Source: a virus
Taxonomy: Duplodnaviria > Caudoviricetes
DNA length: 31,397 bases
IMG/VR virus record: IMGVR_UViG_3300028586_000777
Location: 1 to 31,397 of that record
Reading direction: 5' to 3' (one strand)
Part shown: one piece after another, positions 1 through 31,397 of the stretch
Layout of the letters: the number at the start of each line of letters is the position of its first letter
Numbering within the stretch: position 1 is the first letter of the stretch
Position numbers and translations under genes: made by a program
Notes under the pieces: model-generated
What the model was told of the DNA's origin: nothing
The model's database searches: none
What the model saw: the letters and a program-made list of their open reading frames with translations, nothing else

Positions 1-246
1 CTAAACCCCCTCCATAAAAGCAATAATGCTAAACATGCTGCGGTCGCTAATATTAAAAGTAGCAGCCGTAATCCCGGCAGCTTTGGTTTTTTTGGTTTTG
101 CCAAACTCCTTAAGAAGGATATCGGAATGTTTAAGGTAAGCTTCATAGTACACCTTCCAGTCGAGTATATGCACAGGTACAAGGCCCTTGCCCATAAGTT
201 TTATAAAGTTATCGCCAAGGCTGTTTATTGTTTCATATCGCGTCAT
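1..246 (-). CDS. Small protein with C-terminal HTH-like segment (81 aa), possible DNA-binding regulator
   Basis: ATG at 246 sits 1 nt after the TAA of the upstream gene (TAAcATG), so it is preferred over the ORF-track start at 327. C-terminal AAGITAATFNISDRSMFSII resembles a helix-turn-helix. Confidence 0.55.
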   Translation of the reverse strand: MTRYETINSLGDNFIKLMGKGLVPVHILDWKVYYEAYLKHSDILLKEFGKTKKTKAAGITAATFNISDRSMFSIIAFMEGV

Positions 247-247
247 G

Positions 248-487
248 TTACCATTTATGTATTGGGCAAATATCTGTGCTGCGCACCTTGGCGCTAAGCG
301 GGCATTTACAAACGTTGCAGTAAGCACCCTCTATTTCCTTTAAAGAATCATTTATAAATTCAAGCAGTTTTCCCTGCCGGGCATGGGGGCAGGAGGCACA
401 AAGGTCTGCACGCTGTTGTGCAATCGCTTCGGAAACTTCACTTTTAGAAAGATAATTTTTCCAGCCCGATAAAATATGTTGCAGCAT
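248..487 (-). CDS. Cys-rich putative zinc-binding protein (DUF6171-like)
   Basis: Pattern R..LCASC ... CNVCKCPL.AK.....CPIHKW; 79 aa; same strand as and directly downstream of the tape measure gene. Confidence 0.65.
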   Translation of the reverse strand: MLQHILSGWKNYLSKSEVSEAIAQQRADLCASCPHARQGKLLEFINDSLKEIEGAYCNVCKCPLSAKVRSTDICPIHKW

Positions 488-545
488 TTAACAAGGATAT
501 TTTAATGCCAAATCTTAAAAACCTTTATACAATGAGTAATAAAAT

Positions 546-3347
546 TTAAAAATTAGCCGCATCCCGCACCTGTACATAGCTGTTGCCCTGCGCTATAATA
601 TCCTGTACCGCCACAACCGGCGCAGGCATCGAGCGATTTGCCGTGGCAATTTTTGCAGCAAGCTCATCTACATTTAACGATGGCGAAGCTATATCCCGCG
701 ATACAATGCCACCGCCCGCAAGATAGTTGGGCGTACTGCTGCCCCCGGCCGGGAATGCATTGTTAAACGCCATAAAATGTGCCGCTGCATTGCGGTTCAT
801 AACGCCTATAAGTTCGCCCTGTTCGGCTTCAAACTGTGTACCATCGGCACCGGTAAAAAGCGTGCCACCGTTGCTGTGGCGGTTACCGCCTATATTAAAA
901 AGTGCCCCTTTCTCTGCCTTTGGCGTTTTTGTAGATGTTATCTTTTTTACATTGGCAATACCTGCGGCCACGGCGGCGGCGGCGGCCACAGCACCCAGTG
1001 CAGGCCCTACTATAGGAATGTTACTCATAGCACCGTAAGCAGATACCGCACTTTTATAAGTATCTATTGTAGCCTGCGCCACTGCCATAGCCTTACCTGC
1101 CGCACTTTCCTTGCCCAGTATAGCCGTAAGGCTGCTAAAGGTACTGTTGGCAAGGCTAAGCTTATTATCCATAACGGCCTTTTTAGCATCAACTTCCTCC
1201 TTGTCATACTTGGCATTTATAAGGTTTACATCAGCGCCTGTCTTTTCGGCTTCAGCCAGTTTCTGTTTTCTTTCGGCATTTATTTTATCTAACTGAAACT
1301 GCAGGTCGTAATCATGGTTTACAGTATCAACGGCACGCTTATTGGCAAGGTCGGCCGCTGCTTTGCCATCATCTGCATCCTTTTTTTCGGTATCTAATTT
1401 TTCCCGGTTTACTTTAGCGGCAGCATCAATTTTCTCAAACTCCTCTTGTTTCTGCTGCTCTGTAATTATGCCATTTTGAAGTCTTACTTCCTGATACTTT
1501 TTTTCTTCTGTAGCTAAATCGTCGAGGCGCTTTATTTCCTGTTTATAAAGTTCATCATTTAAAAATTTCCCTGCAGCTAACCGTTCACTATGTGCTTTAA
1601 GATAGGTTTTTAGTTCGCGGTCGGCATTTTCCACCGCAACAGCAGCCTGCGCTTTAGCAAGGTCATTGGTAATTTTGGCATCTGCAATTTCCTTTTGCAG
1701 TTTGGCATTCGCCGATTTTCCCGCCGCAAGATATTCGGCTTCCGCCAATTTGTTCTTTGCCTTAGCTACCTTTTCGGCCAGTTCCAGTTCTTCCTTTAAG
1801 CTTTTTGCCTTAACACCCTGCTGCTCTATAAGGAGGCTAATCGCCAGGCCTTGCCTTTGCACCTCGTCATCCAGTGCCTGTTTTGCCTTTGCCTTACGGG
1901 CATCTTCGGCCTGCCGGCGTTGCTGGTCGGCATCATCATGTATTTTTTGCTTTGCTGCCTCCTGCTTTTCCACCATTTTAATTTCTTCGCCACTAAGCCG
2001 CATCTTTTCTACCTGTGCTTCCTTCAATGCATCTAATTCCTCCAGGGTAAAGCCCTTTATCTTCATGAGCTTTTCAGCATAAGCCGCACCCTGCACCTGC
2101 AGGCCTGTAAGCTCTTCGGCAGTAAGGTTTTTGCCCAGTGCCATATTGCGCACCGTTTGGTTATAGGCTTCATCGTTAAGCTTCTTGCGCTGGGCCATGT
2201 TTGTGCTTTCTATAGCGGCAGCAGCGATAAGGGCATCTAGGCGTTCCTTTTCGGATAACTTCTGGTTCTCCGACACCTTAATAAGTGCTTCTGCCTGTTG
2301 CTTTGCCTTTTCGTTATTTACCTCCTGCACCGCCATTTGTATGGCAAGTTCTTCCTGTGCTTTTTTCAGGCTTATGGTTTCTTCGGCCGTTCTTTTTACC
2401 TCAGCAGTAAAGTTGGTAACCCCCTGTGCGGCATCATCAAACCCTAAAAAAGCAAGCCCATCCGCAATAAAACCCATGGCCGCCTCTGCCGCCTTAACAG
2501 CCAGCTCAAACCCTGCCGCGATACCGTCTATAAGTATTTCGCCCAGTGGGGTAAGCAAGTCCATGAGCGCATCTGTAATGACCGAAAAAGTGGTAAATAT
2601 CTTTGTAATTTTATTAGCACTCTCTGTACTATTGTTCATGGCGTTTTGCACCAGTGCAAACACTACTGCTATAGCCGCCAGCACTATGCCAAAAGGTGTC
2701 GCTATAAAGCTTATAGCCGATTTTGTCATGCCCATAATACCCTGAGACATACTCTCGAAAGCGCCCTTAAGCAGCGGCCCTGTACCGCCGGCTTCCTGAG
2801 CACGGCTTATTAACCCTGTAAGCCCGCCGTTAAAAATATTAATGCTGTTAAAGCCCTCTTTTACCTGGTCTTTATAATCGCTCATGGTGGTAATAAGCTT
2901 TGTATTTGCCGACCCATTTTCCTTTAGCCAGTTATTATTTTCCTGTAGCTTTCTATTTATAAGGGTAATATTCTGGGCATAGTTAGCATCTGTAACAACA
3001 AGGTCTTTGCGCAGGGCAATAAGTTTGCTGTTGTTTTCTACATATTCGTTCTCTGTTTTAGATGTAGCAGCAAGGGCGGTATCAAGTGCAATTTGATTTT
3101 TAATATGTTTGTCATTGGCAAGAACTAATTCATTTAATGCTTTTGCATTAGTAGAGTATGTGTCATTCAGTACATTTATTTTTGTACTGATTTCCTTATA
3201 TTGGTCAGACTGCATTTGACCTGATGTCATAAGCTTGTTCTGTGCATTGAGCAGGCTGTTAAGCTGCCTTTCGAGTTTTAGCTGGCTCTCCATAAGGCTC
3301 TTAGTATCCACATCGAGCCGCGCCAACACTATTACATCATTTTTCAT
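546..3347 (-). CDS. Tail tape measure protein
   Basis: 933 aa, Ala/Lys/Glu-rich coiled coil, hydrophobic stretches (ATPFGIVLAAIAVVFAL; PIVGPALGAVAAAAAVAAG), C-terminal GG.RHS.GG / EAE.GE motif, tail-operon position. Confidence 0.85.
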   Translation of the reverse strand: MKNDVIVLARLDVDTKSLMESQLKLERQLNSLLNAQNKLMTSGQMQSDQYKEISTKINVLNDTYSTNAKALNELVLANDKHIKNQIALDTALAATSKTENEYVENNSKLIALRKDLVVTDANYAQNITLINRKLQENNNWLKENGSANTKLITTMSDYKDQVKEGFNSINIFNGGLTGLISRAQEAGGTGPLLKGAFESMSQGIMGMTKSAISFIATPFGIVLAAIAVVFALVQNAMNNSTESANKITKIFTTFSVITDALMDLLTPLGEILIDGIAAGFELAVKAAEAAMGFIADGLAFLGFDDAAQGVTNFTAEVKRTAEETISLKKAQEELAIQMAVQEVNNEKAKQQAEALIKVSENQKLSEKERLDALIAAAAIESTNMAQRKKLNDEAYNQTVRNMALGKNLTAEELTGLQVQGAAYAEKLMKIKGFTLEELDALKEAQVEKMRLSGEEIKMVEKQEAAKQKIHDDADQQRRQAEDARKAKAKQALDDEVQRQGLAISLLIEQQGVKAKSLKEELELAEKVAKAKNKLAEAEYLAAGKSANAKLQKEIADAKITNDLAKAQAAVAVENADRELKTYLKAHSERLAAGKFLNDELYKQEIKRLDDLATEEKKYQEVRLQNGIITEQQKQEEFEKIDAAAKVNREKLDTEKKDADDGKAAADLANKRAVDTVNHDYDLQFQLDKINAERKQKLAEAEKTGADVNLINAKYDKEEVDAKKAVMDNKLSLANSTFSSLTAILGKESAAGKAMAVAQATIDTYKSAVSAYGAMSNIPIVGPALGAVAAAAAVAAGIANVKKITSTKTPKAEKGALFNIGGNRHSNGGTLFTGADGTQFEAEQGELIGVMNRNAAAHFMAFNNAFPAGGSSTPNYLAGGGIVSRDIASPSLNVDELAAKIATANRSMPAPVVAVQDIIAQGNSYVQVRDAANF

Positions 3348-3634
3348 CCTGTTACAATTACGGTTAAAATATTACTTTCAAGGCTTATTTTTTTATCGGT
3401 CGTGCTTACTCCCATAGCAATAAGGTAGGTTCCGGGTTGTGGGTAAGCAATCTCATATTCGTAATTAGATATTTTAGTAACCGCACCCGTGGCACGTAGT
3501 GTAAAGCTGTAGGCCTCCTGGTTATACAGCGTATTGAGCCACACGGTTACGGGTGTATTTACAGCTGCCTGTATGCTGGTAAGGCCAAAGCCAAAATCTA
3601 TAAGCGGGGGTATGTTTTTAAGTTGCTGTATCAT
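3344..3634 (-). CDS. Small beta-rich protein (PKD/Ig-like), probable virion component
   Basis: 96 aa with YPQPGTYLI motif typical of PKD folds; ATGA overlaps with both neighbours. Confidence 0.55.
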   Translation of the reverse strand: MIQQLKNIPPLIDFGFGLTSIQAAVNTPVTVWLNTLYNQEAYSFTLRATGAVTKISNYEYEIAYPQPGTYLIAMGVSTTDKKISLESNILTVIVTG

Positions 3635-5889
3635 GGTATGACAATTAAAACCGTGTTAGAGTACTGATTTATAGAAGTATTTGTATAATCGTAACTGCTT
3701 ATCCTAAAATAGTGCATGCCGCTTGCTAAACGCGTTGTGGTGTAGGGGCTGCTTAAGTTTTCTGTCGCGCCACTGTAGGCCGACCAGTTAACGGCATCTG
3801 CCGAATATTCTATTATGCACGGGTAGTTATCTATGGTACGCGTAAAGTAAATTATTACCCGCAAGCCGCCTGTTCTTACAATACTTGTAATGGTAAAAAC
3901 TGCCGGGGTGGCTACCACTGCCGGGGTGTTATAAGCTACCTGCACCAGTTCGCACTTTGTAACCTTGCCGGGTATGTAGTTGTTTACCTTGTTTAAAATG
4001 TAGTAGTTAGATAGCTGCTCTATGTAGTACAGTTTCTTAAAATCAAGGTTGGCAATATCAACATCGGTAAGCCAAAGCTCTGCCGTAAGCAGTACTGCGT
4101 TGTTTAGTATTGCCTGTAGCGGGGCATAAAACCTGCTTATGATTTCTTTAAAGCTAAGGCCGCTAAAGGTTTCGCGATAGCTTGTGTTAACAGGGTTGTT
4201 AAGGTCGCCAAGTATGGGCGACGCTACATTTATGGTGCGCGATACCTGCTGCGATTTTAAAAAGTAATAGCGTTTATCTAACGGTTTATAAGTAACGGTG
4301 GGCTCACCGGGCTGTGGGTCTTCTACAATTTCTTTTTCCCAAAGTTTGTACACATTGCTGTTATCGCCCAGGTAGACAGATGGTACACGTTCCGGACTGT
4401 ATATTTTAGATTTTAAAACATCGCGTGTATCGGGCAGGTTTACATTTGCAACAGCAATTCCCCAGTCGTTATGCGAGCTTTCCTTATCGTTATAGGTATA
4501 TTTAAACAGGTTATTTTGGGCATAGGTGCCGTATATATAGTTCTCCTGTGTTTTTTTGCTGAATTTTTTGCTCCAGTTTACAACATCGGCTCCCTGCAAC
4601 TGCTCCTGAAGCGTTAAAAAGTGGTAGTCGTTGCTAAACTTATTTTTGTACATGGTAAGCCCAAAGCGGTGTACCACCTCGTTAAGAAAGTCCTTTACAG
4701 CAAAATCTGTAAATACCTCACTAAAATCAATATTCTCAGGGTCTACCCGCAGGAGCTCTATAGTAAGTTCATCGGCATGCCAGTCTTCGTTAAGTTCATA
4801 ACTGTCAGTGCCCTGTCCGCCTATTATGGCGCAAATACTATCAAAAGCATTAAGCTGAAACGGATTAGAGGTAAACTCGAATTCTTCGCCATATATTAAA
4901 TACGGCCGCTCGTTAAACACGTTTATAATGTTGTTGCCCGTTTGGTAAGCCTGCAGACTATCGCAGTTTTTGCCAAATTGTATAAAACTGTCTTTATGTA
5001 TGCCCGAGTTACCGTCGCGGTGCCCAAAAAGCCTGCCTTTTATTTTAATTTTGTAAGAGGCCGATGCCAGAACTTTTAAATGGATACCGCCATTATTGCC
5101 AAGTAGTTGCGACTGGTACAAACTTGTAGTCATGAACCGGCAATAGTATACCTTACGAATGTACATACTGTTGTTATTGCTTTGTATAAAGTGGTAATCG
5201 CTGCTCTTAAAAAGCGGAATATCGGCAGCATCATCGCGCACCTGCCCTTTAGGGAACGTCATGTAAAGCTGCTTAAAATCGGGCGAATCAAAGATAGATC
5301 CTGTGGGCTGCACGTTATCGTTGTACCTCTGGAAGATTTTTTTCCAGAGCCACGCCACACTAACCGATGGTACCAGGTAATCTATATTTACACGGTTACC
5401 GCCCATTGCAGGCTGGGTGTTGTTGCCGTTATAGTCGGCAATAATGTAGCGGTACGGCACGTTTTGCTGCCACGAATTTATTACATCCTGCACAGATTTT
5501 GTGTGCACCAGCTCTTGCAGCCCCACCTCGTTTAATGTCTTGTTCTCTATAGCCTTGTACAGCTCTATAATACCGTCGTAAATCACGGCTTCATAACTGT
5601 CGCCACCATCAGTAATTACCGCGCGGCCATTGTATACAAAGCATTCGCCCGAGGCACTGTACAGCGAGCATTTATTTTCCTGGTACGGCACCACCGAGTT
5701 GTTGCCCACAAGGGTTAAGTAGTGCATAATGCGCACATTGTTTCCCGTTTTAGGCAGGTTGAATTTATTGGTGTAGCTGGCCTGCCGGTTATCGAGGCTG
5801 TTAAGGTCGTTTACCTGCCGGGTCTGGGCAATAACGCTACCGGCATCAACATCTGCAAGCTGCCCGTTAATGTAAAGGAGTAGTGCCAA
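3631..5889 (-). CDS. Minor tail / baseplate hub-like protein with C-terminal FN3-like domain
   Basis: 752 aa; N-terminus LYINGQLAD...SYTNKFNLPKT.NN typical of Bacteroidota siphophage tail proteins; C-terminal IEYS.D..NW...L.SG.HYFRI FN3-like; TTG start. Confidence 0.7.
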   Translation of the reverse strand: MALLLYINGQLADVDAGSVIAQTRQVNDLNSLDNRQASYTNKFNLPKTGNNVRIMHYLTLVGNNSVVPYQENKCSLYSASGECFVYNGRAVITDGGDSYEAVIYDGIIELYKAIENKTLNEVGLQELVHTKSVQDVINSWQQNVPYRYIIADYNGNNTQPAMGGNRVNIDYLVPSVSVAWLWKKIFQRYNDNVQPTGSIFDSPDFKQLYMTFPKGQVRDDAADIPLFKSSDYHFIQSNNNSMYIRKVYYCRFMTTSLYQSQLLGNNGGIHLKVLASASYKIKIKGRLFGHRDGNSGIHKDSFIQFGKNCDSLQAYQTGNNIINVFNERPYLIYGEEFEFTSNPFQLNAFDSICAIIGGQGTDSYELNEDWHADELTIELLRVDPENIDFSEVFTDFAVKDFLNEVVHRFGLTMYKNKFSNDYHFLTLQEQLQGADVVNWSKKFSKKTQENYIYGTYAQNNLFKYTYNDKESSHNDWGIAVANVNLPDTRDVLKSKIYSPERVPSVYLGDNSNVYKLWEKEIVEDPQPGEPTVTYKPLDKRYYFLKSQQVSRTINVASPILGDLNNPVNTSYRETFSGLSFKEIISRFYAPLQAILNNAVLLTAELWLTDVDIANLDFKKLYYIEQLSNYYILNKVNNYIPGKVTKCELVQVAYNTPAVVATPAVFTITSIVRTGGLRVIIYFTRTIDNYPCIIEYSADAVNWSAYSGATENLSSPYTTTRLASGMHYFRISSYDYTNTSINQYSNTVLIVIP

Positions 5890-5959
5890 TGGTTTTTGTA
5901 TTGGAAGAAATCTTTTTTGAAGTTGAACGCCTTAGGTCGAAAGCCAAAAGCCGGTGTAA

Positions 5960-6665
5960 AAGGAGCGCGGATTAACGCGGATGCTGCACAATCGCGGATT
6001 AGCGCGGATTTCTTACTATGCATTTTCTCGCTTCTTTCTTCAGGCGCTGTCATTGCGAGGCACGAAGCAATCTGATTATTTATGTCAATTACGGTTAACA
6101 CCCCCATTAGTCCTCTCCCCTAACCCCTCTCCAAAGGAGAGGGGAACTCCTGCCGACCTACTCAAGCGGATTTTTTTCTTCACATTCGAGTGTAGCTGCT
6201 GGGGGAGAGGACTTTTAGCATAATTATTTTGTTTTAATATTGTGTGAACACAATAGTAACCTCTCCCCAGCCCTCTCCGAAGGAGAGGGGATAGCTACAC
6301 CCGAATGTCTTTATTTATAGATTAGCCGTTATTCTACATTTAAATCTTATCGAACTGTACCCGTTCGTTGGTCCCCCTCTCCTTCGGAGAGGGGTTGGGG
6401 GTGAGGACTTATTGTGTCCAAACGATATCAAGAGGGGAGCCAGCCCCCAACGCCGCAAAGAGCACGTGAAAGGGTTTTGCAGGTACAATTTTGATCATGA
6501 GTGTAGCTGCCCCCCTCTCTTTCGGAGAGGGGTTGGGGGTGAGGCCATCCAACCTGGTGCAGCTCAATCTAAAATCTAAAATCTTAGATCTTAAATTACA
6601 GTGTAGCTTAGTCTATCATCTCACATCTATCATCTTACACCTATCATCTATTATTTCACATCTGT
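5960..6665. repeat. Cluster of REP/MITE-like palindromes and heptamer repeats
   Basis: CGCGGAT repeats 5965-6011; CTGTCATTGCGAGG-CACGAAGCAATCT 6047-6073; CCCCTCTCC-N3/4-GGAGAGGGG hairpin elements at about 6111-6148, 6258-6300, 6373-6408, 6498-6545; AAATCT- and TCTATCA-type short tandem repeats 6566-6663. Confidence 0.85.
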
Positions 6666-6671
6666 TATCTC

Positions 6672-7826
6672 CTAAAGAGTCTGCGTAAACCGTGCCGGCA
6701 GCTCAATATCAAAAGTAAAATTAGTAAGCGGCTGGCGCGGGTTTTTAATACGTGCCCCTGTGGTTTTTAGCGTTACCTCTATCCAGTCATGGTAACCGTT
6801 GCGGGCATAAGGCCGGCCGGCAAAAAGATAAATTTTAGGGCTGTCCAGTATTCCCTCTACAATAGGGCGTTCATCTTCGGTAAGCAGTTCGGCAACAATT
6901 TTTAAAGTATCCTGACTCTCCTTCCCTATCTGTATAGTTCGGCCAAAGGCATCTTCGGGGTTATCATTGTCACGTTCAAGTTCGCCAAGCTGTTTGGTGC
7001 TGCGGTCTATGCTGTAGGTATCTTCAAACAGCCAGTAGCTGTAGCCACCCATGGCGTTGAGCCACTTAAGGTATACGCCCTCCTTGTACGGCACTTTATC
7101 GAGCGTTATAAAAACATCATCGGCAGAGGGTTGCTGCGTTGCTAATATCCGCAGGCTGTTATGCCCATCGGTCAGTGGCAGGATATCCTCGAGCGTTTCA
7201 TCATCATCGCCATTGCTAAACACCACCCTGAATACCGAACCCGTTACATTAAACTGCTGTGTGAGCAAATTAGTCTCGTTTACCACCCTAAAAACGGTAG
7301 TAGGAGCGTATACCGACACGTCATAAGGGTAACCCTGCCAGTACTTTAAATGCCATGCATTGCCCGATGCCTTTGCAAACGGACTCAGCACGTACGTACC
7401 CAATGTGCTAAGGACATTGTAGTTACCGGGCTGCACCGCGCCTGCAAGCCACGTAAGGGTATGGGTAACACTGGTAGTGCTATCGTCGCTAAGCGTGATT
7501 TCTATGGCTATGTTAAGCTGCAGCAGCGTGCCGGGCGTGGCATTATACACAAAGCTATCGGGGTTGGTACCGTTAGGGTCGGGTTGCAGGGTGTCGTTAA
7601 AATCGCGGGTGTTTATAAGCGCGGTAACATAGGGTTTAAAGTTGAAAAAAAACGTGCCGTCTGGCGCGGGGTACAGCATAACGTTAAGGCCGGCAGTATC
7701 GTTACTGCTGGTTATCCTGCACCACTTTGCCGCCAGCGGACTATCTGAATAAAAGCGGAGCACATCGTTATTGTATGCCATCCGCAGCCTTGCGGCATCT
7801 ATAGGTTTAGAGAAAATTATACTCAT
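6672..7826 (-). CDS. Distal tail (Dit)-like protein
   Basis: 384 aa; YLKWLNAMGGYSYWLF and ILDSPKIYL motifs seen in Bacteroidota phage tail proteins; lies upstream of the hub-like gene. Confidence 0.6.
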   Translation of the reverse strand: MSIIFSKPIDAARLRMAYNNDVLRFYSDSPLAAKWCRITSSNDTAGLNVMLYPAPDGTFFFNFKPYVTALINTRDFNDTLQPDPNGTNPDSFVYNATPGTLLQLNIAIEITLSDDSTTSVTHTLTWLAGAVQPGNYNVLSTLGTYVLSPFAKASGNAWHLKYWQGYPYDVSVYAPTTVFRVVNETNLLTQQFNVTGSVFRVVFSNGDDDETLEDILPLTDGHNSLRILATQQPSADDVFITLDKVPYKEGVYLKWLNAMGGYSYWLFEDTYSIDRSTKQLGELERDNDNPEDAFGRTIQIGKESQDTLKIVAELLTEDERPIVEGILDSPKIYLFAGRPYARNGYHDWIEVTLKTTGARIKNPRQPLTNFTFDIELPARFTQTL

Positions 7827-8278
7827 AAGGCAAGATTTTTTAGGTAGTTAGTAATTTGGGTTGTAAAATCAGAAAGGTATACTTCGCCCACCTTATCCAG
7901 CATTCGCTGAATCCGTTCCGGTGTTACCACGCTGTCCACAATATTTATCGTGCCTGGTTTGGGCCTCCAGCCCTCCCGCCCTATTTTGCGGGCAATAAGA
8001 AAGGCAAGGCTGCTTATGGTCATGTTCTTTTCGAGCCTCGTGGCAATGCCTTTTTGTTTTATCCATTGCTCTATAGCCTCGCTTGGCGGTGGGGTTCCGG
8101 GGGCACGGCCATTTATGTAACCGGCAGCAGTAATGCTGTAGCCGTTAGTCGTAGCTTCTACCTTTACGGTGTCTGCCCAATTGCCGCTTACCGCCTGCCC
8201 ACCGGCTTCATAAGCCGCAATAATATCTGCCTTGAGCAGTTCAAATTCGGCTGCCAAAAGTTGGCCGGCGTTACTCAT
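7823..8278 (-). CDS. Neck/tail completion protein (HK97 gp10-like position)
   Basis: 151 aa; GRAPGTPPP..AIEQWIKQKGI...LAFLIARKIGREG motif common in phage virion morphogenesis proteins; overlaps both neighbours. Confidence 0.65.
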   Translation of the reverse strand: MSNAGQLLAAEFELLKADIIAAYEAGGQAVSGNWADTVKVEATTNGYSITAAGYINGRAPGTPPPSEAIEQWIKQKGIATRLEKNMTISSLAFLIARKIGREGWRPKPGTINIVDSVVTPERIQRMLDKVGEVYLSDFTTQITNYLKNLAL

Positions 8279-8720
8279 AGTTTACAGGAAATTTAATGCT
8301 GTAGCTGCACAACAGCCCGTCCATATTAGCATCGAGCGCATCGGTAACATCTATGTTGTCCCATTGCGACACTTCGGCATCAAGGCAGGCGAGCGTGTTG
8401 CCTATATCCTGAAACACACCCAGTAGCGGTGCGATATTCATTACATATTTAGAGGTTTGCTCATTGCCCCTTTCGGCGAAATACTGCTGGTCGAAGTCGG
8501 CATGTTTTACCAAAAAGAATTTCCCCAGATAAGTAGTGGCTGTAATTTTTGTGCCCGATGTATTGTACTCGCTTTTGCGGTTAGTAAACTCATGCAGCAG
8601 GAAAATCTTATCGGTTTCGAGTGTGCCGTCCAGCAGGTTAAGGGCGGCCTTCTTGCCGTAATGGTAGGTCAGGTTTTTGCTAAGCGCAATATCCTGAAGG
8701 ATGCGTACTATGTCTTTCAT
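8271..8720 (-). CDS. Putative tail terminator / structural protein
   Basis: 149 aa, 8 nt overlap with the neck gene; function inferred from size and position only. Confidence 0.45.
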   Translation of the reverse strand: MKDIVRILQDIALSKNLTYHYGKKAALNLLDGTLETDKIFLLHEFTNRKSEYNTSGTKITATTYLGKFFLVKHADFDQQYFAERGNEQTSKYVMNIAPLLGVFQDIGNTLACLDAEVSQWDNIDVTDALDANMDGLLCSYSIKFPVNYE

Positions 8721-8725
8721 TTGAG

Positions 8726-9773: not shown

Positions 9774-9809
9774 GAACGTGGATTTGTTTATTCGAAGATT
9801 CGGTTATAG

Positions 9810-22279: not shown

Positions 22280-22283
22280 AGCG

Positions 22284-22946: not shown

Positions 22947-22999
22947 CAAATTATTCTTCAATAATACTTCCACAAGAATTCAACAAAAATCAAAACAAC

Positions 23000-23599
23000 A
23001 TGCCCATAGATTGCACAGGAATTTTAACTGCAGATATTCACTTCGATTGTATTAATGCGCCAGTAGGCGGTATAGAGCAAAATGTAGTGCTCATTAATAA
23101 AGACGATATAGACCTTTCCGCCACTACGCTGGGTACAGATAACAGGCTACAGGTAACGCAAATACAGCTTAAGCCCGGCAAGACAGGCTATCAGCTTACG
23201 GGTGTTAAGCAAAGCAACGGCAAGGCGTGGGAACTGGTTAAAAAAGAAAACGCGCCCGATAAGTTTAAGCACACCTTTAGCGGCGTGATCTTTAACCCCA
23301 GCCTGGCTAACAAAACACAGGCCGATAACCTTAGCAAAGGTGGTAAGTATGTGGTGGTTATAGAGCAGGTATGGAAAGGTGGTGCCAATGCCGATGCTTT
23401 TGAGGTACTGGGTTACCACTCCGGCCTCGAGCTTACTACCATGACTAACAGCTCTAAAGAGAATGATAACATGATCATGTTCGAACTGGCATCGGCCGAT
23501 GGTTTTGAAGAGACTACCATGCCTAAAACCTACTTTAAAGAAGCCGAAGCATACGGAATCAGGAAAGCGCTCTTTGACAATAATTTTATTGAGGCGTAA
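23000..23599 (+). CDS. Major tail (tube) protein, 199 aa
   Basis: ATG at 23000 after an A-rich leader; C...VGGIE..V.LIN..DI, F.HT, FEVLG...GL motifs typical of Bacteroidota siphophage tube proteins. The ORF-track extension from 22823 is REP-derived. Confidence 0.7.
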   Translation: MPIDCTGILTADIHFDCINAPVGGIEQNVVLINKDDIDLSATTLGTDNRLQVTQIQLKPGKTGYQLTGVKQSNGKAWELVKKENAPDKFKHTFSGVIFNPSLANKTQADNLSKGGKYVVVIEQVWKGGANADAFEVLGYHSGLELTTMTNSSKENDNMIMFELASADGFEETTMPKTYFKEAEAYGIRKALFDNNFIEA

Positions 23600-23608: not shown

Positions 23609-24097
23609 ATGAATTTTACCACTATGGATATTGCCACCCTTACCCAGTCTGTTACGGGTAAGGGTGTGCCATACCTGGAGCTGTTTCTTAAAGAATACAC
23701 CTCCCTTTTTGGCGGGCCGGTTAACCCCTCCTGCCCTAAATGCCTAACCGCGTACTTAACCAACTATCAAAACCATTTTAAAGCCATGCAAAACACCTGC
23801 GAATATAAACTACACAAAAAATACGAAAACATACCGTTGCAGTTTGGCTCGCCCATACTGGTTAACAACAGCAACATCACTAATGAGTATGCCGAAACAC
23901 TCCTGCAACAGCCCAACGGCATGAGGTTTTTTGCAGAGATACCATCTGCAGGCGATCCTTTCGAAGAGGCAATTGCATTGACCGATGAGAGCCTGATTCC
24001 CGAAGAAGACGAAGAGCCAATACCCGATTTAGTCGAACAAACCCCGCTGGAGGGAAGCGATGATCCCGAGATTTTAGAAACCGGCCAACCCGAATGA
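23609..24097 (+). CDS. Hypothetical protein with CxxC and acidic tail
   Basis: 162 aa; SCPKC motif; Asp/Glu/Pro-rich C-terminus; ATGA overlap with the portal gene. Confidence 0.65.
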   Translation: MNFTTMDIATLTQSVTGKGVPYLELFLKEYTSLFGGPVNPSCPKCLTAYLTNYQNHFKAMQNTCEYKLHKKYENIPLQFGSPILVNNSNITNEYAETLLQQPNGMRFFAEIPSAGDPFEEAIALTDESLIPEEDEEPIPDLVEQTPLEGSDDPEILETGQPE

Positions 24098-25248
24098 GGA
24101 CTCTTTTAATAGATGTGTGGAAAAGGCTAACACCCTGGAGCAAGAGCGCCGATGTGTATGCCAATGATGTAGATAATGCGTACCCTGAACGCATGGACAG
24201 GCTGATTAACAACAGTGTTACGGCAAAGAGCGCTGCGGCTATTATGGTGCAGTACCTCATTGGTAAAGGGTATGGTACCGATGCCGATAGCATTATCATA
24301 AACAAAGAAAAAAACCTGAAGCTGATAGATTTTGCCGATGATGTGGCCGACGACCTTGTTAAACAACGCGGCGTGTTTATTCACATAAACTGGAATGCCC
24401 TGTACCAGATTGCCGATTGCAGCGTGGTGCCTTATGAGTGGTGCCGCATAGGCAAAAAAGACAGTAACGACTATGCCGGCAAAATAGCCATAAGTAAAGA
24501 ATGGCTTAAGCCAAAGCGCAGCGAAATAGAACTGGTAGACGTTTACAATCCGCGTAAAGCGGTGATAGATGCACAGGTAGAAAAGGCAGGCGGCTGGGAG
24601 CATTACAAAGGCCAGTTACTGTTCATAAACATGGATACCAAACTTATTTATCCGCTGTCGCGCATCGATTCGGTTTCCGAAGACTGCGATAGCGAGGCGC
24701 AGGCATCCATCTACAAAAACAAGCTTTTAAGAAAGGGCTTTTTTGGCAATACGCTGGTGGTTACACGTCCGCTTGTAGGCGAAGGCCTCGAGCCCGGCAG
24801 CACCGCGCTAACCGAAGCAGAGAGTGAGCGGGAGCGCTTTCAGCAGGCTATAAAAGACAGCCTTGGTGCACAAAACACCGGTGGCGTGCTGTGCCTTGAA
24901 ATGGATTTTGCCGGAGAGAAACTGGACGATGCCATATTGATAAAACAGATAGAAAGCAAGATAGACGACAAGCTATTTAACTATACCGAGACCAGCGTGC
25001 GCGAAAATATACTGGTGGCGTTTAACAACCTCCCGGCAGGACTCATAAAGACTAATGACTCGGCGCTATTTGGCAATTCGGGCGAGGCCATCCGCGAGAT
25101 GAAACGCACCTATTGGGAAAACACAAACAAGGAGCGCAACCTTTTAACAGCGGTCATTAATCAATTATTGCAGCGGTCGCAAGACTATGCGAGCCTTATT
25201 GTACAACCCCAAAAACTGATAGACGATGCAACCCCTGATAACCCGTAG
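24094..25248 (+). CDS. Portal protein
   Basis: 384 aa; DNAYP..M..LINNS.TA, YL.GKG, G..N.G.VL, I..AF...P.L...... motifs of Bacteroidota phage portals; followed by the adaptor gene. Confidence 0.8.
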   Translation: MRTLLIDVWKRLTPWSKSADVYANDVDNAYPERMDRLINNSVTAKSAAAIMVQYLIGKGYGTDADSIIINKEKNLKLIDFADDVADDLVKQRGVFIHINWNALYQIADCSVVPYEWCRIGKKDSNDYAGKIAISKEWLKPKRSEIELVDVYNPRKAVIDAQVEKAGGWEHYKGQLLFINMDTKLIYPLSRIDSVSEDCDSEAQASIYKNKLLRKGFFGNTLVVTRPLVGEGLEPGSTALTEAESERERFQQAIKDSLGAQNTGGVLCLEMDFAGEKLDDAILIKQIESKIDDKLFNYTETSVRENILVAFNNLPAGLIKTNDSALFGNSGEAIREMKRTYWENTNKERNLLTAVINQLLQRSQDYASLIVQPQKLIDDATPDNP

Positions 25249-25720
25249 CGACATTGCACGCTACAAGCAAATATCTAAAACGCCGTATGACGATAAGCTG
25301 CATGAGCAAATACTCGATGCGCAGCTGCTGGACCTTCAGCCGCTCATTGGCGAAAGCTTTTTCAACAAAATACTTTCTGCCCCCGAAGATTACGCCGACC
25401 TTTTAGAAGGCTGTATTTATGAGCACGACGGCATAAGCTATACCAATTATGGGCTCAGCATGGTACTTACCTACTTTGCTTATGCACGATACATGATGTT
25501 CTCAGGCGCTACAGACACACCATTTTCGGTAGTCGAAAAACTAAGCGACAGCAGCAGGCCGGTAGAGACATCGGCTAAAAAAACATTGTATACCCTTAAC
25601 CGGGAGGCAGCCGTGCAGGTGTGGGAAAATGTAAAAAATTACCTTTTGCGCACGGCACACCCCGATTATAAAACCTGCAAAACAAAGCAGGGCGGATTTC
25701 GATTTAAAAAAATAGGCTAA
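25226..25720 (+). CDS. Head-tail adaptor/connector (DUF6712-like)
   Basis: 164 aa; I.DAQ..DL.PLIGE.FF..I and L.YFAYARY motifs; overlaps the portal end. Confidence 0.7.
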   Translation: MQPLITRSDIARYKQISKTPYDDKLHEQILDAQLLDLQPLIGESFFNKILSAPEDYADLLEGCIYEHDGISYTNYGLSMVLTYFAYARYMMFSGATDTPFSVVEKLSDSSRPVETSAKKTLYTLNREAAVQVWENVKNYLLRTAHPDYKTCKTKQGGFRFKKIG

Positions 25721-28216
25721 ATGAATATTATATCTACCGTAAACGATAAGCGCTTTTCTATAAACAACATACAGTACCTAAAAAACTATGTTACAGAGGT
25801 GCGCGGCAATAAAATAGCCATTTTTAACTGCTACGAGCGGCACGACGTGCTGGTAGAGTTAACGCATTACAGCAACTTTATGGTTAACCGCGTGCGTTAC
25901 CCCAACGTGACAGATTTGCAGGCGGCGCTGTTGCCGGTGCTGTATTCGCGCAATAACCTTGGCGGCGACGGCCCGGATATCGACCAGGATAACATAGAGA
26001 TCGTGCATTACTTAAGGAGTGCATCGGCGGCTGCCGAAAACATGCTGGCACAAATAAACAGCCTCGAAATGTATACACTCGATGATAAACAAAGCCTGTG
26101 GTTTATTGTTACTGTTCCCGGTACGGCACAACCTAACGGAAAACTAACCTACCCCCGCACGTTTAAATATAAAATGGTAAACTATGGTAAGGGTACCTAC
26201 GGGCAGGGTGCGTTTCAGTTAGCGGCAAGCGATGTAGAACTAGTTTATGCAGCGCAGGCAACAGCCACCGACATAAAAAATCAGCCCGGTACACAGGTTA
26301 TTAACTATGGTGCTATTACTACCGGTATTGCATCGTGGGTTTCGCTACACAGCCCCGCTTTTAGTATACCTGCCCCCGCAAGTGCTTACACTTTTTTTAC
26401 CGGTACTGTAAATGGCACGGCCATAAGTTACTTATGGGTGGGCACGGCAGGCACTAACGGATCAGGCGGAAGGCCAGCCGCCGCATCAGACTTTTTAGCA
26501 TTAGCCGAAACCGTAACCACTACAGAGCAGGATAATATAGACGTTAAAAAGTCATTTACTTTAAGTGGTCTTTATACCACAACTACCATATTAAACAAAA
26601 TAAACAGCCTTCCTGCTTATGCGGTAAGCGAAAAACAATCGGTATGGTTTGTTGGCCGCGACCTTACCTTTACGGAAGGTGGCCTAAACAGACCCGAACT
26701 GCCTGCAACCACAAATCCGCTCGTCCTTAAATATAAAATGCTCAATAAGGGTGCAGGTATTTATGGCATGGGGCAAACACAGCTAACAGCGGCAGATATC
26801 GAGCTTGTATACAGCAATGAAGCTTCGCTGAACGACCTTGAGGCTGCCCCAGAAACCGATGTACTTTTATTTACACTTACCACAGGGCAAACGCTGAGCC
26901 AGTGGCTTAATACCAGTAACCCTGCTAAAGTTATACAGCCGCAGGAAGAAGGCTATACCCTATTTAAAAGCACAGGCGCAGATAACCGGACTTATTTATG
27001 GATAGGCAGCGGAGGAACTTATGGCAGCGGGAGAACACAGGCTGTGCAGGATAATTTTCAGTTATTAAATGAGGCAATTACTCCCGTTATACAGGATAAC
27101 ATAGATATTAAAAAAATGTTTACCATACCTAACAATTATACTACTGCAAGTATAGTTTCGGCAATAAATAGTTTAAGCGCCTACGAAATAAAAGACACGC
27201 AATCGGTCTGGTTTATTGGCAGGCAGCAAACGATGCTGCAAATTCCGGGGAACATTGGCCTCAATGAGCCCATACGGTATTTGGGTCCGTTGATCTTAAA
27301 ATACAAAATGATTAACAAAGGCAAAGGCTGGTACGGGCGCGGGGGCATTGCGCTAACATCGGCCAATATTGAACTGGTTTACACCAACGAAGCCTCATTA
27401 GAAGACCTGGAGTCGGGAGCCGAAACGCAGATTATCGACTTTATCCTGGCACAGGGCCAAAGCTTAAGCGAGTGGCTCAATGTACAGCTTCCGGATAAAA
27501 ACATACAACCTCAGGAAGAGGGATATACAATCTTTAAAGGAACTGTTGATAGCGAAGAAGTATCTTATTTATGGATAGGAGCAGCAGGAAGATATGGCAC
27601 CGGCAGGCTGCAAAGCAGTGAAACTGACTTCCAGCTACTAAATGATGTTGCACCGGCCCCGTTCATACCAGGCTATGCGCAGGTGCTTAGCCAGAATAAC
27701 AGGACATTGCAGTATGCCGTGCATGGTAACGAAACCACAGGTGCTACTACCGCCTACGGGGCAGATATAGAGCATACAGGCATCAGCGGGCTATCTGTTG
27801 CATTAGATTTTGATGAGCCAGCTGCTACAGTACGCTACCGCATTCCGGCGAAGCCGACACAAGATATTTTTGCAATGCAAAGTGATATTCACAAACCCGT
27901 TAAAACTATTACAGTTTCTACCGCGGGTTTTACCGCAGAAACATACACATTACAGGCAGAAGATAAGGATAAATGGCTGCTGTTTAACGTCTCAACCGAC
28001 TTTACAGTAAAAATTCCGGATACGGTGTTTGCAGCGAATACGCTTATAGAAGGCGAAGTTGCAGATGTGGGTCAGGCAACTTTTGTAACGGTTGGGGCAT
28101 CGCTGCATCACGGCGCATCTGAAAATCCGAGAACAGCAGAAAAAAACAGCGTGTTTGGACTGAAATTCAGGTCGGCCACAGAGGTTTCACTATATGGCAA
28201 ACTCGATTTACGATAA
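25721..28216 (+). CDS. Fibre/decoration-like structural protein with three ~185 aa repeats and a C-terminal adaptor domain
   Basis: QDNI...INSL..Y...KQSVWF...KYKM.N.G.G.YG...ELVY...YLW.G..G..G.G repeats begin near 25985, 26528 and 27092; C-terminal YTL...D.DK.L.F......V.IP...F...GQ.T...YG.L domain. Confidence 0.75.
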   Translation: MNIISTVNDKRFSINNIQYLKNYVTEVRGNKIAIFNCYERHDVLVELTHYSNFMVNRVRYPNVTDLQAALLPVLYSRNNLGGDGPDIDQDNIEIVHYLRSASAAAENMLAQINSLEMYTLDDKQSLWFIVTVPGTAQPNGKLTYPRTFKYKMVNYGKGTYGQGAFQLAASDVELVYAAQATATDIKNQPGTQVINYGAITTGIASWVSLHSPAFSIPAPASAYTFFTGTVNGTAISYLWVGTAGTNGSGGRPAAASDFLALAETVTTTEQDNIDVKKSFTLSGLYTTTTILNKINSLPAYAVSEKQSVWFVGRDLTFTEGGLNRPELPATTNPLVLKYKMLNKGAGIYGMGQTQLTAADIELVYSNEASLNDLEAAPETDVLLFTLTTGQTLSQWLNTSNPAKVIQPQEEGYTLFKSTGADNRTYLWIGSGGTYGSGRTQAVQDNFQLLNEAITPVIQDNIDIKKMFTIPNNYTTASIVSAINSLSAYEIKDTQSVWFIGRQQTMLQIPGNIGLNEPIRYLGPLILKYKMINKGKGWYGRGGIALTSANIELVYTNEASLEDLESGAETQIIDFILAQGQSLSEWLNVQLPDKNIQPQEEGYTIFKGTVDSEEVSYLWIGAAGRYGTGRLQSSETDFQLLNDVAPAPFIPGYAQVLSQNNRTLQYAVHGNETTGATTAYGADIEHTGISGLSVALDFDEPAATVRYRIPAKPTQDIFAMQSDIHKPVKTITVSTAGFTAETYTLQAEDKDKWLLFNVSTDFTVKIPDTVFAANTLIEGEVADVGQATFVTVGASLHHGASENPRTAEKNSVFGLKFRSATEVSLYGKLDLR

Positions 28217-28218
28217 CT

Positions 28219-29763
28219 ATGGGAGCAATTTTAGCAAGCAGGATGAGGCAGCGGATTATGCCGTTTGTCTCGGTATGGAAAACTGATAACATTGCCGATG
28301 GCAGCAGTGCCGCAAACCAGATTAAACTTCCGTTATACGATGGCGGTATTTATGATTTTAAGGTTGACTGGGGAGACGGCACGGCATCTAAAATAACATC
28401 GTACGGCCAGGCTGAGGTAACCCACAGCTATGTTAACGAAGGAACGTATACCGTAACCATAAAAGGGACTCTTATAGGATTTCGCTTTAGTACTTCAAAC
28501 GACAGGCTAAAATTCCTGACTGTAAAGCAGTGGGGATGTTTAAGGGTTGGCAATTTGGGTCGTATTTTTATTGGCTGCGCAAATTTAACCCTCGACGATG
28601 TAAGCGATGTACTGAACTTAAAAGGCATAACAGATTTAAGCTATATGTTTGCCAAATGTAGTTCGCTCACAAAGGTAAACCTGATAACCAGCTGGAACAC
28701 CACAGCAGTTACAACAATAAGTACTATGTTTTGGCAGGCATCTGTATTTAACCAGTCACTTAATGGATGGGATACCAGCAATGTAACCGATATGAATAGT
28801 GTGTTTAACAATGCTTTATCTTTTAATCAGTCACTAAACGATTGGGATACCAGTAAAGTAACGACTATGCTAAGTATGTTTAACGGTGCCTCAGCCTTTA
28901 ATCAGCCGTTAGACAACTGGGATACTGGTAATGTAATAAGCCTGTCGAGTGTGTTTAGCGGTGCCTCGTATTTCAATCAAAATATTAACAGTTGGAATGT
29001 TAGTAGCGTTACTACGATGCAGTCAATGTTTTACTTAGCAGCATCTTATAACCAACCTTTAAATGACTGGAATACCAGCAACGTTACAGATATGGCTCAG
29101 ATGTTTGGCCGTGCAACCTCCTTTAACCAGCCGTTGGGCAGCTGGGACACCGGAAATGTAACTAATATGACAAATATGTTTAGGCTCGCTACAGGACTAA
29201 CTGGTGTGTTTAATCAGGATCTTTCGTCGTGGAATACCGGTAATGTAACAACAATGTTTTACATGTTTGCATACAACCCGGTTTTCAATAAGCCTTTAAA
29301 TAGCTGGAACGTATCTAAAGTAACCAACATGGATTCGGTTTTCAGGCAATGTTTTGCGTTTAACCAGTCTCTAAATAACTGGGACACCAGCAACGTGACA
29401 AACATGAGTTCGTTATTTTTTGAAGCGAGAGCATTCAACCAGCCCCTTAATTTGTGGAATACGCGAAAGGTTACAAACCTCACAGGAATGTTTCAAAACG
29501 CTACAGATTTTAATCAGGATGTTAGTAACTGGGATGTTACAAGTGTTGCCAACTTCGGGAACTTTATGTTTGGTAAAACCTTCTTAAACTATTCTTCCGG
29601 CAATTATAACGCGCTTTTAAATAGTTGGGCATTGCAAAATGTCCTTACTAATAAGTCTGTACATTTTGGCACCATAAAATATACATCGGCAGCCCAGGCA
29701 GGCCGCAATAGCCTGACTACAACTAAAAGATGGGTTATTACCGATGGCGGAATAACTACCTGA
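28219..29763 (+). CDS. DUF285/BspA-like repeat protein with PKD-like N-terminus, putative receptor-binding protein
   Basis: About twelve 25 aa repeats FNQ.L..W(D/N)(T/V)..VT.M..MF; VDWGDG...H.Y...GTYTVTI PKD motif; no signal peptide visible. Confidence 0.88.
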   Translation: MGAILASRMRQRIMPFVSVWKTDNIADGSSAANQIKLPLYDGGIYDFKVDWGDGTASKITSYGQAEVTHSYVNEGTYTVTIKGTLIGFRFSTSNDRLKFLTVKQWGCLRVGNLGRIFIGCANLTLDDVSDVLNLKGITDLSYMFAKCSSLTKVNLITSWNTTAVTTISTMFWQASVFNQSLNGWDTSNVTDMNSVFNNALSFNQSLNDWDTSKVTTMLSMFNGASAFNQPLDNWDTGNVISLSSVFSGASYFNQNINSWNVSSVTTMQSMFYLAASYNQPLNDWNTSNVTDMAQMFGRATSFNQPLGSWDTGNVTNMTNMFRLATGLTGVFNQDLSSWNTGNVTTMFYMFAYNPVFNKPLNSWNVSKVTNMDSVFRQCFAFNQSLNNWDTSNVTNMSSLFFEARAFNQPLNLWNTRKVTNLTGMFQNATDFNQDVSNWDVTSVANFGNFMFGKTFLNYSSGNYNALLNSWALQNVLTNKSVHFGTIKYTSAAQAGRNSLTTTKRWVITDGGITT

Positions 29764-29785
29764 TTTATAAGATCATAACCTCTAT

Positions 29786-30238
29786 TTGCTAACAGTATTA
29801 AACGTGAAACTTTTACAATCTTTTTTAATACCCTTGCTTGCATTACTGTTGCCGGTGCAGGGAATGCTTATTGCAGTTGGCGCAGCGATTGGCCTCGACA
29901 CGCTAACCGGCATCTACAAATCAGTAAAAATAGGGCAGCCGTTAATAAGCCGGCGTTTTGCCGACATTATCCTGAAAATGTTTGTGTATGAGCTGGTAAC
30001 GCTCATGATATTTACCATCGACTACTGCCTGCTATCGGAGTTTTTTTGCCTGTGGTTTTCGGTAAGCTTCTTTTTTACCAAAGCCTGTGCAATGGTGTTA
30101 ATTTTTACCGAGATGGTTTCTATAAAAGAAAATATTGAGCAGGCGCACGGAATCGATATTTTAAGACAACTGCGCAATGCCTTAAAGAGAACAAAAGATT
30201 TAAAAAATGATGTATTTGACCTGACTAAAGATACTTAA
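29786..30238 (+). CDS. Holin (phage holin family 4-like)
   Basis: Several hydrophobic segments with LD.LTG..K, SRRF...I.K and E..SI.EN motifs; TAATG-coupled to the endolysin; start could be the GTG at 29804. Confidence 0.85.
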   Translation: MLTVLNVKLLQSFLIPLLALLLPVQGMLIAVGAAIGLDTLTGIYKSVKIGQPLISRRFADIILKMFVYELVTLMIFTIDYCLLSEFFCLWFSVSFFFTKACAMVLIFTEMVSIKENIEQAHGIDILRQLRNALKRTKDLKNDVFDLTKDT

Positions 30239-30768
30239 TGGACACTGTAACCTTAAACCGCATTAACTACCTGCATCCTGCTGTAAGGCAGGAGGCACTC
30301 GATGCCTATAGCCATATAAACAACAAGCTTTTTGGCAAAAAAATCAGGCTTCGCTTTTCCCATACATTACGTACCTGGGGCGAACAGGATGAGCTCTATG
30401 CCATTGGGCGAACACTGCCCGGTAAAAAAGTAACCAATGCTAAGGCAGGGCAATCTATTCATAATTATGGGTTAGCGGTTGATATCGTTATCCTGATCGA
30501 TACAAACGGCGACAACTCTTTTAAGACCGCGTCATGGAATACTACAAGCGACGATGATAAAGATGGTGTACCCGACTGGATGGAAGTTGTAACCTGCTTT
30601 AAAAAACTTGGGTGGGTTTGGGGTGGCAACTGGAAATCTTTTCCGGATTATCCTCACTTCGAAAAAACGTTTGGGCACAACTGGAAATCACTTCAGGCGA
30701 AATATAACGCGGGCAACGTGTTTACCGAAGATATTAATGGTGTAACATATACATGGGTTAATTTATGA
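30238..30768 (+). CDS. Endolysin, M15-family (L-Ala-D-Glu-type) Zn peptidase
   Basis: RT..EQ.ELYA.GRT.PG..VTNA..GQS.HNYGLAVD and WGGNW..F.DYPHFE motifs. Confidence 0.92.
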   Translation: MDTVTLNRINYLHPAVRQEALDAYSHINNKLFGKKIRLRFSHTLRTWGEQDELYAIGRTLPGKKVTNAKAGQSIHNYGLAVDIVILIDTNGDNSFKTASWNTTSDDDKDGVPDWMEVVTCFKKLGWVWGGNWKSFPDYPHFEKTFGHNWKSLQAKYNAGNVFTEDINGVTYTWVNL

Positions 30769-31397
30769 AAAGCTACTCATATCCCACCGTTATAATTGTG
30801 TTGCTAATGCTGCTCCTATTTATTGTAGATAATTGCAGGCGCAGGGAGCAAATGGCCGATGATGCCGTTAGCACATTATCCGATAGCCTAACGAGTTTTA
30901 CAAACAAGCTAGGATTACAGTCGGTACATATTGCAACCCTGCAGGTAAACAAAGCACAGTTGCAGGATATAGTTTTAGCAAAAGATAAAAAGCTGGCAGC
31001 GCTTACAAAAGAGTACAGCAGGGTAAATGCGATAGTGCAGTACAATCAGCTTGTAAAATACGATACTATAAACGTTAGTTACAAAGATACGGTACCATGC
31101 ATTTTTAATAGAGCAGGCAATGTAAGCACAAAATGGTACAGCTTTAACTATAACGCTTCGCAGGGTGGTTTTACTATAGACAGCCTTAGCATAAACAACC
31201 AGGCAACGAGTATAACCGGCTTTAAACGTTCGTGGTTTTTAGGGAAAGAAACCATTGTTACAGAGGTTACAAATACCAACCCTCATGTTACAGTTGGTAC
31301 TTTAAAATCTATAGCAATTGTGGTGCCTGTGCCCTGGTATAAAAAGTGGTATGTATGGCTGGGCGCAGGAATTGTGGGAGGGCTGCTGGCAAGATAA
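30765..31397 (+). CDS. Spanin-like lysis accessory protein
   Basis: Follows the endolysin with ATGA overlap; N-terminal hydrophobic helix ending in Cys, coiled coil, beta-rich middle, C-terminal WYKKWYVWLGAGIVGGLL membrane segment. Confidence 0.55.
   Translation: MKSYSYPTVIIVLLMLLLFIVDNCRRREQMADDAVSTLSDSLTSFTNKLGLQSVHIATLQVNKAQLQDIVLAKDKKLAALTKEYSRVNAIVQYNQLVKYDTINVSYKDTVPCIFNRAGNVSTKWYSFNYNASQGGFTIDSLSINNQATSITGFKRSWFLGKETIVTEVTNTNPHVTVGTLKSIAIVVPVPWYKKWYVWLGAGIVGGLLAR

Follow-up and report, generated by a model that had tools for sequence, protein, structure and literature searches.

RcGTA is controlled by host regulators, and PBSX of Bacillus subtilis kills and has a contractile tail. According to sections of PMC12946183, the characterised gene transfer agents (GTAs) come from Rhodobacterales, Desulfovibrio, Brachyspira, Bartonella, Caulobacter and Methanococcus, none of them from Bacteroidota, and PBSX packages 13.4-kb DNA. 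The window analysed here, 31,397 nt of viral DNA (IMG/VR record IMGVR_UViG_3300028586_000777), carries a phage-derived cluster that recurs in Flavobacterium and resembles each of these systems in part. Like BaGTA, as portrayed in parts of PMC3610622, it comprises clade-wide phage genes with host-like substitution rates and a retained phage-derived replication module, but it belongs to another phylum and phage family, its initiator lies within the cluster and is missing in 9/23 relatives, and it has a predicted CI-type switch of its own and dispersed promoter modules. It shares with RcGTA-type GTAs, as far as those sections of PMC12946183 describe them, host-retained head-tail genes, lack of excision and separating operons, whereas it has a predicted CI switch rather than host regulators, a TerS that kept its helix-turn-helix (HTH), a cluster size of 22–49 kb and no visible sequence kinship. 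With PBSX it has in common that it is non-excising and repressor-controlled, that its TerL belongs to the PBSX family (by a match below the TIGR01547 cut-off) and that its capsid is related to a gene annotated XkdG; unlike PBSX, it has no recognised sheath and a long tape measure. No description of the cluster was found in the literature searched, most subscription papers and the supplementary GTA and prophage tables being outside its scope. The comparisons below lead us to regard domestication of this cluster in one Flavobacterium clade as highly probable.

The original prediction had described intact head, tail, packaging and lysis genes with a minimal replication module and no integrase, excisionase or recombinase. 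Pfam and PHROG scans of the 35 open reading frames (ORFs) bore this out, recovering TerS, TerL, a ClpP-type protease, portal, tape measure, holin and M15 endolysin, a primosomal-type initiator and an SSB-like gene, and none of the three excision-related classes (Table 1). The window is, however, the whole of the virus record and both its ends fall exactly on stop codons, which indicates a cut made at gene boundaries; the absence of an integrase is therefore not readable from the window alone. The public run that matches the window best is catalogued as a leaf litter metagenome, possibly its sample of origin. The proposed S24-type repressor was upheld in its HTH (Pfam and PHROG) and in AG, GDSM and LLKE motifs present in 33/33 aligned copies, which we take to be the S24 cleavage site and the Ser and Lys of its dyad, but not by any Pfam S24 match. 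Of the gaps thought to be filled with REP-like DNA, five (363–2185 nt) do hold 27/29 REP-like matches, but the largest of them consists of six tandem predicted promoters.

Table 1. Coordinates of features in the window, with strand and basis or remark.
Feature	Position	Strand	Basis or remark
HTH protein, 81 aa, helical, predicted late activator	1–246	-	23/23 type I clusters
Cys-rich protein, 79 aa, possible zinc-binding co-regulator	248–487	-	23/23 type I clusters
Tape measure protein	546–3347	-	PHROG, E 1e-8
Tail-tip and tail-assembly genes (96, 752, 384, 151, 149, 178 aa)	3344–9773	-	Roles inferred from position
Gap, four REP-like repeats	5890–6671		
Gap, three REP-like repeats	8721–9236		
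Gap, three REP-like repeats	9774–10136		
TerL (Terminase_3, PBSX/SPP1-like)	10137–11468	-	Walker A/B and nuclease motifs kept
TerS, N-terminal HTH kept	11452–11973	-	Pfam/PHROG
AT-rich accessory island (360, 91, 154 aa)	12004–14056	-	Varies by lineage
Replication module: DUF6633 protein and primosomal-type initiator	14415–15717	-	Missing in 9/23 relatives
Early genes: two SSB-like OB proteins and 111-aa first gene	15717–16822	-	Pfam/PHROG
Predicted early promoter, -7 box	16850–16857	-	
Palindromic operator GTGTAATATTCCAC of predicted early promoter	16859–16872		
CI-like repressor, HTH and S24-type domain	16948–17682	+	Pfam/PHROG HTH, motif conservation
Six tandem predicted late promoters, ACTGCA-N8-TTCAGY..TAnnTTTG	18384–20091	+	Unit ~335 nt
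ClpP-type head protease and major capsid protein	20199–22279	+	Pfam/PHROG; weak HK97-fold matches for capsid
Gap, three REP-like repeats	22280–22999		
Virion structural protein, likely tail tube	23000–23599	+	PHROG 19979; Atlas lead 0.84–0.86 to tail-tube clusters
162-aa protein, portal, DUF6712 protein	23609–25720	+	Pfam/PHROG
Fibre/receptor-binding candidates, variable: 831-aa repeat protein and PKD+DUF285 protein	25721–29763	+	
Lysis cassette: holin, M15 endolysin, DUF6549 (likely spanin)	29786–31397	+	Pfam/PHROG

The minus strand carries a short early/replication block, TerS, TerL, the tail genes and the tape measure, and the plus strand the repressor, head protease, capsid, likely tube, portal, fibres and lysis genes. 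Judged by gene order, this divergent layout is a derived inversion and not the usual family order: the block from repressor to HTH gene is inverted in the window and in three further IMG/VR records, in which dinB lies between repressor and ClpP. Misassembly is an unlikely explanation, since those three records have the same layout; no listed contig spans the promoter array. The window's TerL is 69% identical to that of Cellulophaga phage phi10:1 and 57% to that of Flavobacterium phage 11b. For the 352-aa capsid, HK97-fold matches were weak but consistent, identity to the gene annotated XkdG in phage BS-TP3 was 25%, and a low-confidence structure model (pLDDT 60) gave no fold match at E≤0.001. 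Several minor features vary among lineages. Positions 12004–13369 form an island of 26–30% GC, whose 360-aa membrane-like ORF also lies just before TerS in G008 and G010, neither of them among the window's closest relatives. At 17696–18013, where relatives have dinB, a 105-aa ORF without a Pfam match appears to be a remnant, presumably resembling the start of RhuM/Fic-type proteins. The PKD and DUF285 protein (BspA-like 25-aa repeats, 28219–29763) is replaced by unrelated proteins in most relatives.

Relatives of the TerL in GTDB were concentrated in F. rivuli, F. subsaxonicum, F. zepuense, F. salilacus, F. beibuense, F. cerinum, F. suzhouense, F. suaedae, F. akiainvivens and neighbours. Among 401 genomes of the genus, 16 had TerL matches at E≤1e-30 (13 at ≥74% identity, one partial at 64%, two at 33–34%). 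When the same genomes were ranked by RecO, the top 14 comprised 12 of the 13 TerL carriers together with G241 and G068, which encode the repressor at 80–82% identity and further cluster genes; the thirteenth carrier, G018, ranked lower. As RecO is linked to the cluster, it is only a rough marker of the clade, and carrier monophyly depends on this ranking and on a tree of two genes whose single outgroup is partial. Twenty-six regions were assembled first and 11 more stretches afterwards; the 23 type I clusters referred to throughout are those that lie on one contig. Not counted among them are the type II clusters (four, and a decayed copy that is type II-like), two contig-split clusters, the prophage of F. 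rivuli and the IMG/VR records.

All 23 share, with local changes, the order repressor, early genes, TerS, TerL, tail genes, tape measure, Cys-rich protein, HTH protein, ClpP, capsid, tube, portal, fibres, lysis. The DUF6549/lysis end adjoins recO in 15/23, lies within 6 kb of it in two more and has other neighbours in six, four of which belong to one host subclade and have the same new flanks. In G018, ileS adjoins the repressor, and recO and ileS are contiguous in 11/16 outgroup loci compared with 0/14 clade loci, from which we infer a single ancestral insertion between recO and ileS. The cluster thus sits at a common locus in one clade, as had been anticipated, and a patchy distribution at variable loci was not borne out, given the clustering of carriers in the RecO ranking, albeit with the six displaced copies. 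In some lineages host genes and the inversion split the cluster (in F. rivuli, ~12 kb including pepP-like and dinB genes separates early and head operons). Non-core DNA made up 14–61% of the interval from TerL to DUF6712 in 19/20 residents, compared with 3% in the F. rivuli prophage; that of G018 (1%) is as compact as in the prophage. Genes gathered in the gaps include AbiH, AbiJ, HipA, Fic, SocA/Panacea and restriction-modification genes, endolysins have been swapped (M15, glucosaminidase, CHAP) and fibre genes are highly variable. In most clusters the tape measure gene is followed immediately, on the other strand, by a member of an unannotated family of ~270 aa (L210:13832–14644 and 15 other regions), sometimes in duplicate.

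The window's own flanks lie outside the record; in those of its relatives neither an integrase nor an att repeat was found, in agreement with the original prediction. No PF00589 protein was found near any cluster among the best 150 of 176 matches in 25 genomes. Pfam scans covered 147/170 unassigned ORFs that are ≥150 aa long and lie inside the first 26 regions or at most 4 kb away (the other 23 were omitted for length or position), together with 80/128 recurrent families; five later genomes were compared by BLAST alone. The scans gave one phage-integrase match, at E 1.4e-5 and below cut-off, in the second F. rivuli copy; a PF10136 protein lies past porZ in F. akiainvivens. The longest word common to both flanks was ≤12 nt in 23/24 clusters and 18 nt in one. 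That second F. rivuli copy (G001:C2 482864–516163, L143–L145) served as a free-type, positive control for the search: it is a complete-looking prophage of ~33 kb with an integrase and duplicated tRNA-Phe, whose ends form a perfect 49-bp repeat beside the two tRNA-Phe genes. Its structural genes are those of the resident cluster, with hardly any change of order (identity 77% for TerL and 68% for capsid), but it has an integrase, an att repeat, a different repressor and initiator, compact spacing and another palindrome before ClpP.

Descent of the cluster largely followed that of its hosts. A concatenated cluster tree for 20 genomes shared 14/17 splits with an rpoB+gyrB tree (shuffled mean 0.16, maximum 3); rpoB and gyrB trees shared 8/16 splits with each other, and single cluster genes gave 5–11. 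The congruence that had been expected stops short of exact identity, however: two strongly supported splits conflict between cluster and host trees, and the AU test rejected the host topology (p=0.0036), implying either some exchange or an error of the two-gene host tree at those splits. Distances at four-fold sites were similar (cluster 0.56, gyrB 0.48, rpoB 0.43), and type I TerL was monophyletic (support 0.99), with the F. rivuli prophage falling outside. Low dN/dS had also been foreseen, and pairwise NG86 estimates (4–18 chosen pairs per gene, dS 0.05–2) gave medians of 0.042 for TerL, 0.046 for capsid, 0.037 for portal and 0.059 for repressor. Values of 0.04–0.05 over near-saturated synonymous divergence indicate that TerL, capsid and portal have been under selection for most of the history of the clade. 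Medians were 0.08–0.12 for ClpP, tube and TerS (recO, 0.08) and 0.2–0.27 for tail tip, tape measure and initiator, and tail-tip, tape measure and lysis genes showed raised dS and non-orthologous swaps.

Every gene from TerS to DUF6712 was open in 19/23 type I clusters; the four decayed copies (F. akiainvivens, G241, F. beibuense RSKm HC5 and DG1-102-2) count against the cluster being essential. The initiator is open in the window and 14/23 relatives, and seven of the nine clusters without the initiator pair are otherwise intact. Repressor, activator and Cys-rich gene were kept in 23/23, decayed copies included. Culturable, named strains offer a domestication series: one genome has both an integrase prophage and a resident copy, resident clusters either keep or lack the initiator, some copies are rearranged or decayed, and a second type of cluster occupies a different site. 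This makes the transition from prophage to GTA directly testable.

Control of the cluster could be predicted in some detail. A palindrome, GTGKAATATTMCAC, is conserved between the repressor and the first early gene, beside a TAnnTTTG box that we take to be the Bacteroidota -7 consensus; the window's operator, GTGTAATATTCCAC, was found as one exact copy, at the operator site, in 4/5 genomes searched. An operator-like box also lies inside the repressor gene near 17068–17095. A sigma-70 scan gave no information on a promoter of Bacteroidota type. The possibility that the repressor is a host SOS regulator was rejected on full-operator counts equal to the reversed control in five genomes, the high-copy-module genomes being outside this comparison. 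The repressor shares a phage-repressor-like HTH and an S24 domain with the non-canonical Bacteroidetes LexA described in sections of PMC8565304, but its operator is GGA-N4-TCC and matched neither GGA-N5-TCC nor CTAA-N5-TTAG.

A predicted late promoter, ACTGMA-N8-TKCAGY followed ~20 nt on by TAnnTTTG, precedes ClpP in 23/23 type I clusters when one mismatch per arm is allowed. It is missing from the F. rivuli prophage and from the pre-ClpP position in type II; other palindromes were recognised by eye at this position in the prophage and in three viral contigs that are not type I. As the palindromes at one position differ, we interpret the element as a late promoter whose putative activator is the neighbouring 81-aa HTH protein. 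This protein was modelled with high confidence (pLDDT 94), had weak matches to sigma-region-4 and homeodomain-like proteins (E>0.7) and no fold match at E≤0.001, and one of its homologues is named Mor family by UniRef. The 2.2-kb gap upstream of ClpP, previously read as repeat DNA, is on its motifs a row of six predicted head-operon promoters, which is a new observation. The copies start at 18384, 18720, 19051, 19387, 19716 and 20044, an inverted REP pair follows five of the six, and contigs of run X1 match three unit-specific stretches of the array exactly. Shorter tandem arrays, of two or three copies, were also present in F. subsaxonicum, F. zepuense, ST-119, G014, G241 and two IMG/VR records.

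Copies of the motif were dispersed through many carrier genomes. Its strict form was found in 26/37 genomes searched, the reversed control giving 0 throughout, with 30 copies in G003, 19 in G241, 17 in G005, 16 in G008, 15 in G019, 12 in G010 and 1–6 in 20 others; it was not found in the four type II genomes, five outgroups, G025 and G028. Non-carriers had ≤2 motif copies, and the palindrome alone exceeded two copies in only 3/401 genomes of the genus, all carriers. In G003, 27/28 listed palindromes carry the -7 box, and five tandem late-promoter motifs lie distant from the cluster (G003:C1 583433–585691). Neighbouring genes were read at 63 loci in metagenome contigs, whose hosts were inferred from flank similarity to clade genomes. 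Once the sites assigned directly to ClpP were set aside, 53 distinct sites were left, of which 51 were intergenic; two of the 53 proved to be upstream tandem copies of the cluster promoter. An ordinary gene regulon was not supported for these sites: the next ORF (≥80 aa, small RNAs left out) was on the same strand at 22 and the opposite strand at 24 of the 53, with no common downstream family. AbiH, AAA, HNH, Fic, ParE and a restriction enzyme occur among ordinary genes as neighbours.

Many of the copies end a module of ~270 bp common to different loci and absent from orthologous sites in relatives. Modules hold same-strand TTYCACWWT boxes, putative repressor half-sites, at 2.67 per kb vs 0.11, and at 18 loci the box is almost identical to a segment inside the F. 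subsaxonicum repressor gene. They matched no known RNA family (Rfam, 12 loci), and as coding remnants they showed no common peptide beyond the cI-like box; no description of such modules was found in the literature searched, most subscription papers being outside its scope. Tandem and dispersed copies alike are predicted binding sites of the activator and, through the half-sites, of the repressor. The modules are a defined sequence feature. We favour a role in tuning or titrating the switch, although they may also be packaging start points. Among named strains, F. rivuli DSM 21788 has the initiator, F. subsaxonicum DSM 21790 lacks it and carries ~30 motif copies, and F. salilacus has one copy. 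Five of the six high-copy genomes are without initiator, but a link between initiator loss and module number is a lead only: four initiator-less genomes have ≤6 sites, and the lineages are not independent of one another. We would consider it rather unlikely, taken as a whole, that the cluster is an independently domesticated Bacteroidota GTA in transition, whose initiator-less lineages seeded 12–30 modules from their own control sites (the cI-internal box and the late-promoter palindrome) as packaging starts or switch decoys, and so passed from local to genome-wide transduction.

These data support one part of the GTA-like interpretation first proposed, namely long chromosomal residence under selection (common locus, no integrase or att repeat, trees, dN/dS). 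The other part, that particles carry host DNA to relatives, describes a candidate known from its genes alone, and we put its chances at about even. After one ancestral phage insertion between recO and ileS, DNA damage would lead to RecA-stimulated self-cleavage of the CI-like repressor and free the early promoter, which would drive the terminase, tail genes and small HTH activator; the activator would in turn switch on the head/lysis operon at TACTGMA-N8-TKCAGTA. In the proposed scheme the terminase, without excision, could cut only chromosomal DNA, tailed, DNA-filled particles would be built, and holin and endolysin would lyse the producing cell. With terminase, portal and capsid most constrained and nothing that can excise, particles filled with host DNA are the most likely product. 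That the record is an ordinary temperate phage at a preferred site, its integrase trimmed off, is very improbable and largely refuted: the record is indeed trimmed, its flanks lie outside it and a close integrase-bearing relative exists, but neither integrase nor att repeat was found in relatives with long flanks, including F. rivuli (98% TerL identity), pepP-like and dinB host genes lie within the F. rivuli cluster, and the cluster tree is nearly congruent with the host tree.

The raised dS and gene swaps in tail-tip, tape measure and lysis genes fit a weapon as well, in the manner of PBSX: a DNA-filled particle would kill related strains and any packaged host DNA would be filler. CI-type control, predicted to be DNA-damage-inducible, highly variable fibres and swapped endolysins (M15, glucosaminidase, CHAP) favour such a killer, but constraint is strongest on the head and terminase genes, no sheath gene was recognised among the 35 ORFs (where remote homologues could be missed) and not one of the four decayed copies has been cleanly reduced to a tail with intact lysis genes; we regard it as unlikely. 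The retained TerS HTH and an initiator in 14/23 mean that packaging could be local and not genome-wide, and a non-excising lateral transducer would, perhaps by analogy with BaGTA and its run-off replication, replicate in situ from the initiator and package headfuls from a pac site in the cluster, moving the nearby few hundred kb. The initiator open in the window, a TerL of headful-type family and the defence-like cargo of the gaps agree with this, yet seven intact clusters have no initiator and motif copies are dispersed far from the cluster, and we think it distinctly unlikely. A grounded prophage, kept for some other benefit (superinfection immunity through the repressor, defence cargo, or lysis that releases eDNA or vesicles) or helper-dependent, with slow structural decay, would account for the universal repressor, activator and Cys-rich gene, for AbiH, AbiJ, HipA, Fic, SocA/Panacea and restriction-modification genes in the gaps and for 4/23 decayed copies, but it is hard to reconcile with a dN/dS of 0.04–0.05 in the particle genes TerL, capsid and portal, whose synonymous divergence is near saturation, and seems to us improbable.

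Beside the type I cluster, type II clusters occur in one host subclade (G302:C1 1632823–1661173, G011:C2 326215–356987, G012:C1 1821110–1851844 and G026:C22 32805–59432). They too are without integrase and have related repressor, SSB, TerL and DUF6549 genes, but their head module differs (XkdF protease, HK97-type portal). Two of them lie at tRNA-Phe/coaX, the site of the F. rivuli prophage, and type II is possibly a separate domestication. At G021:C1 ~932000–952000 (L352–L353) lies a structural module of more remote kinship, in which the head operon comes ahead of the tail genes. Seven tRNA-like genes form an array (L231 15271–15846) ~9 kb past the type II cluster of G012.
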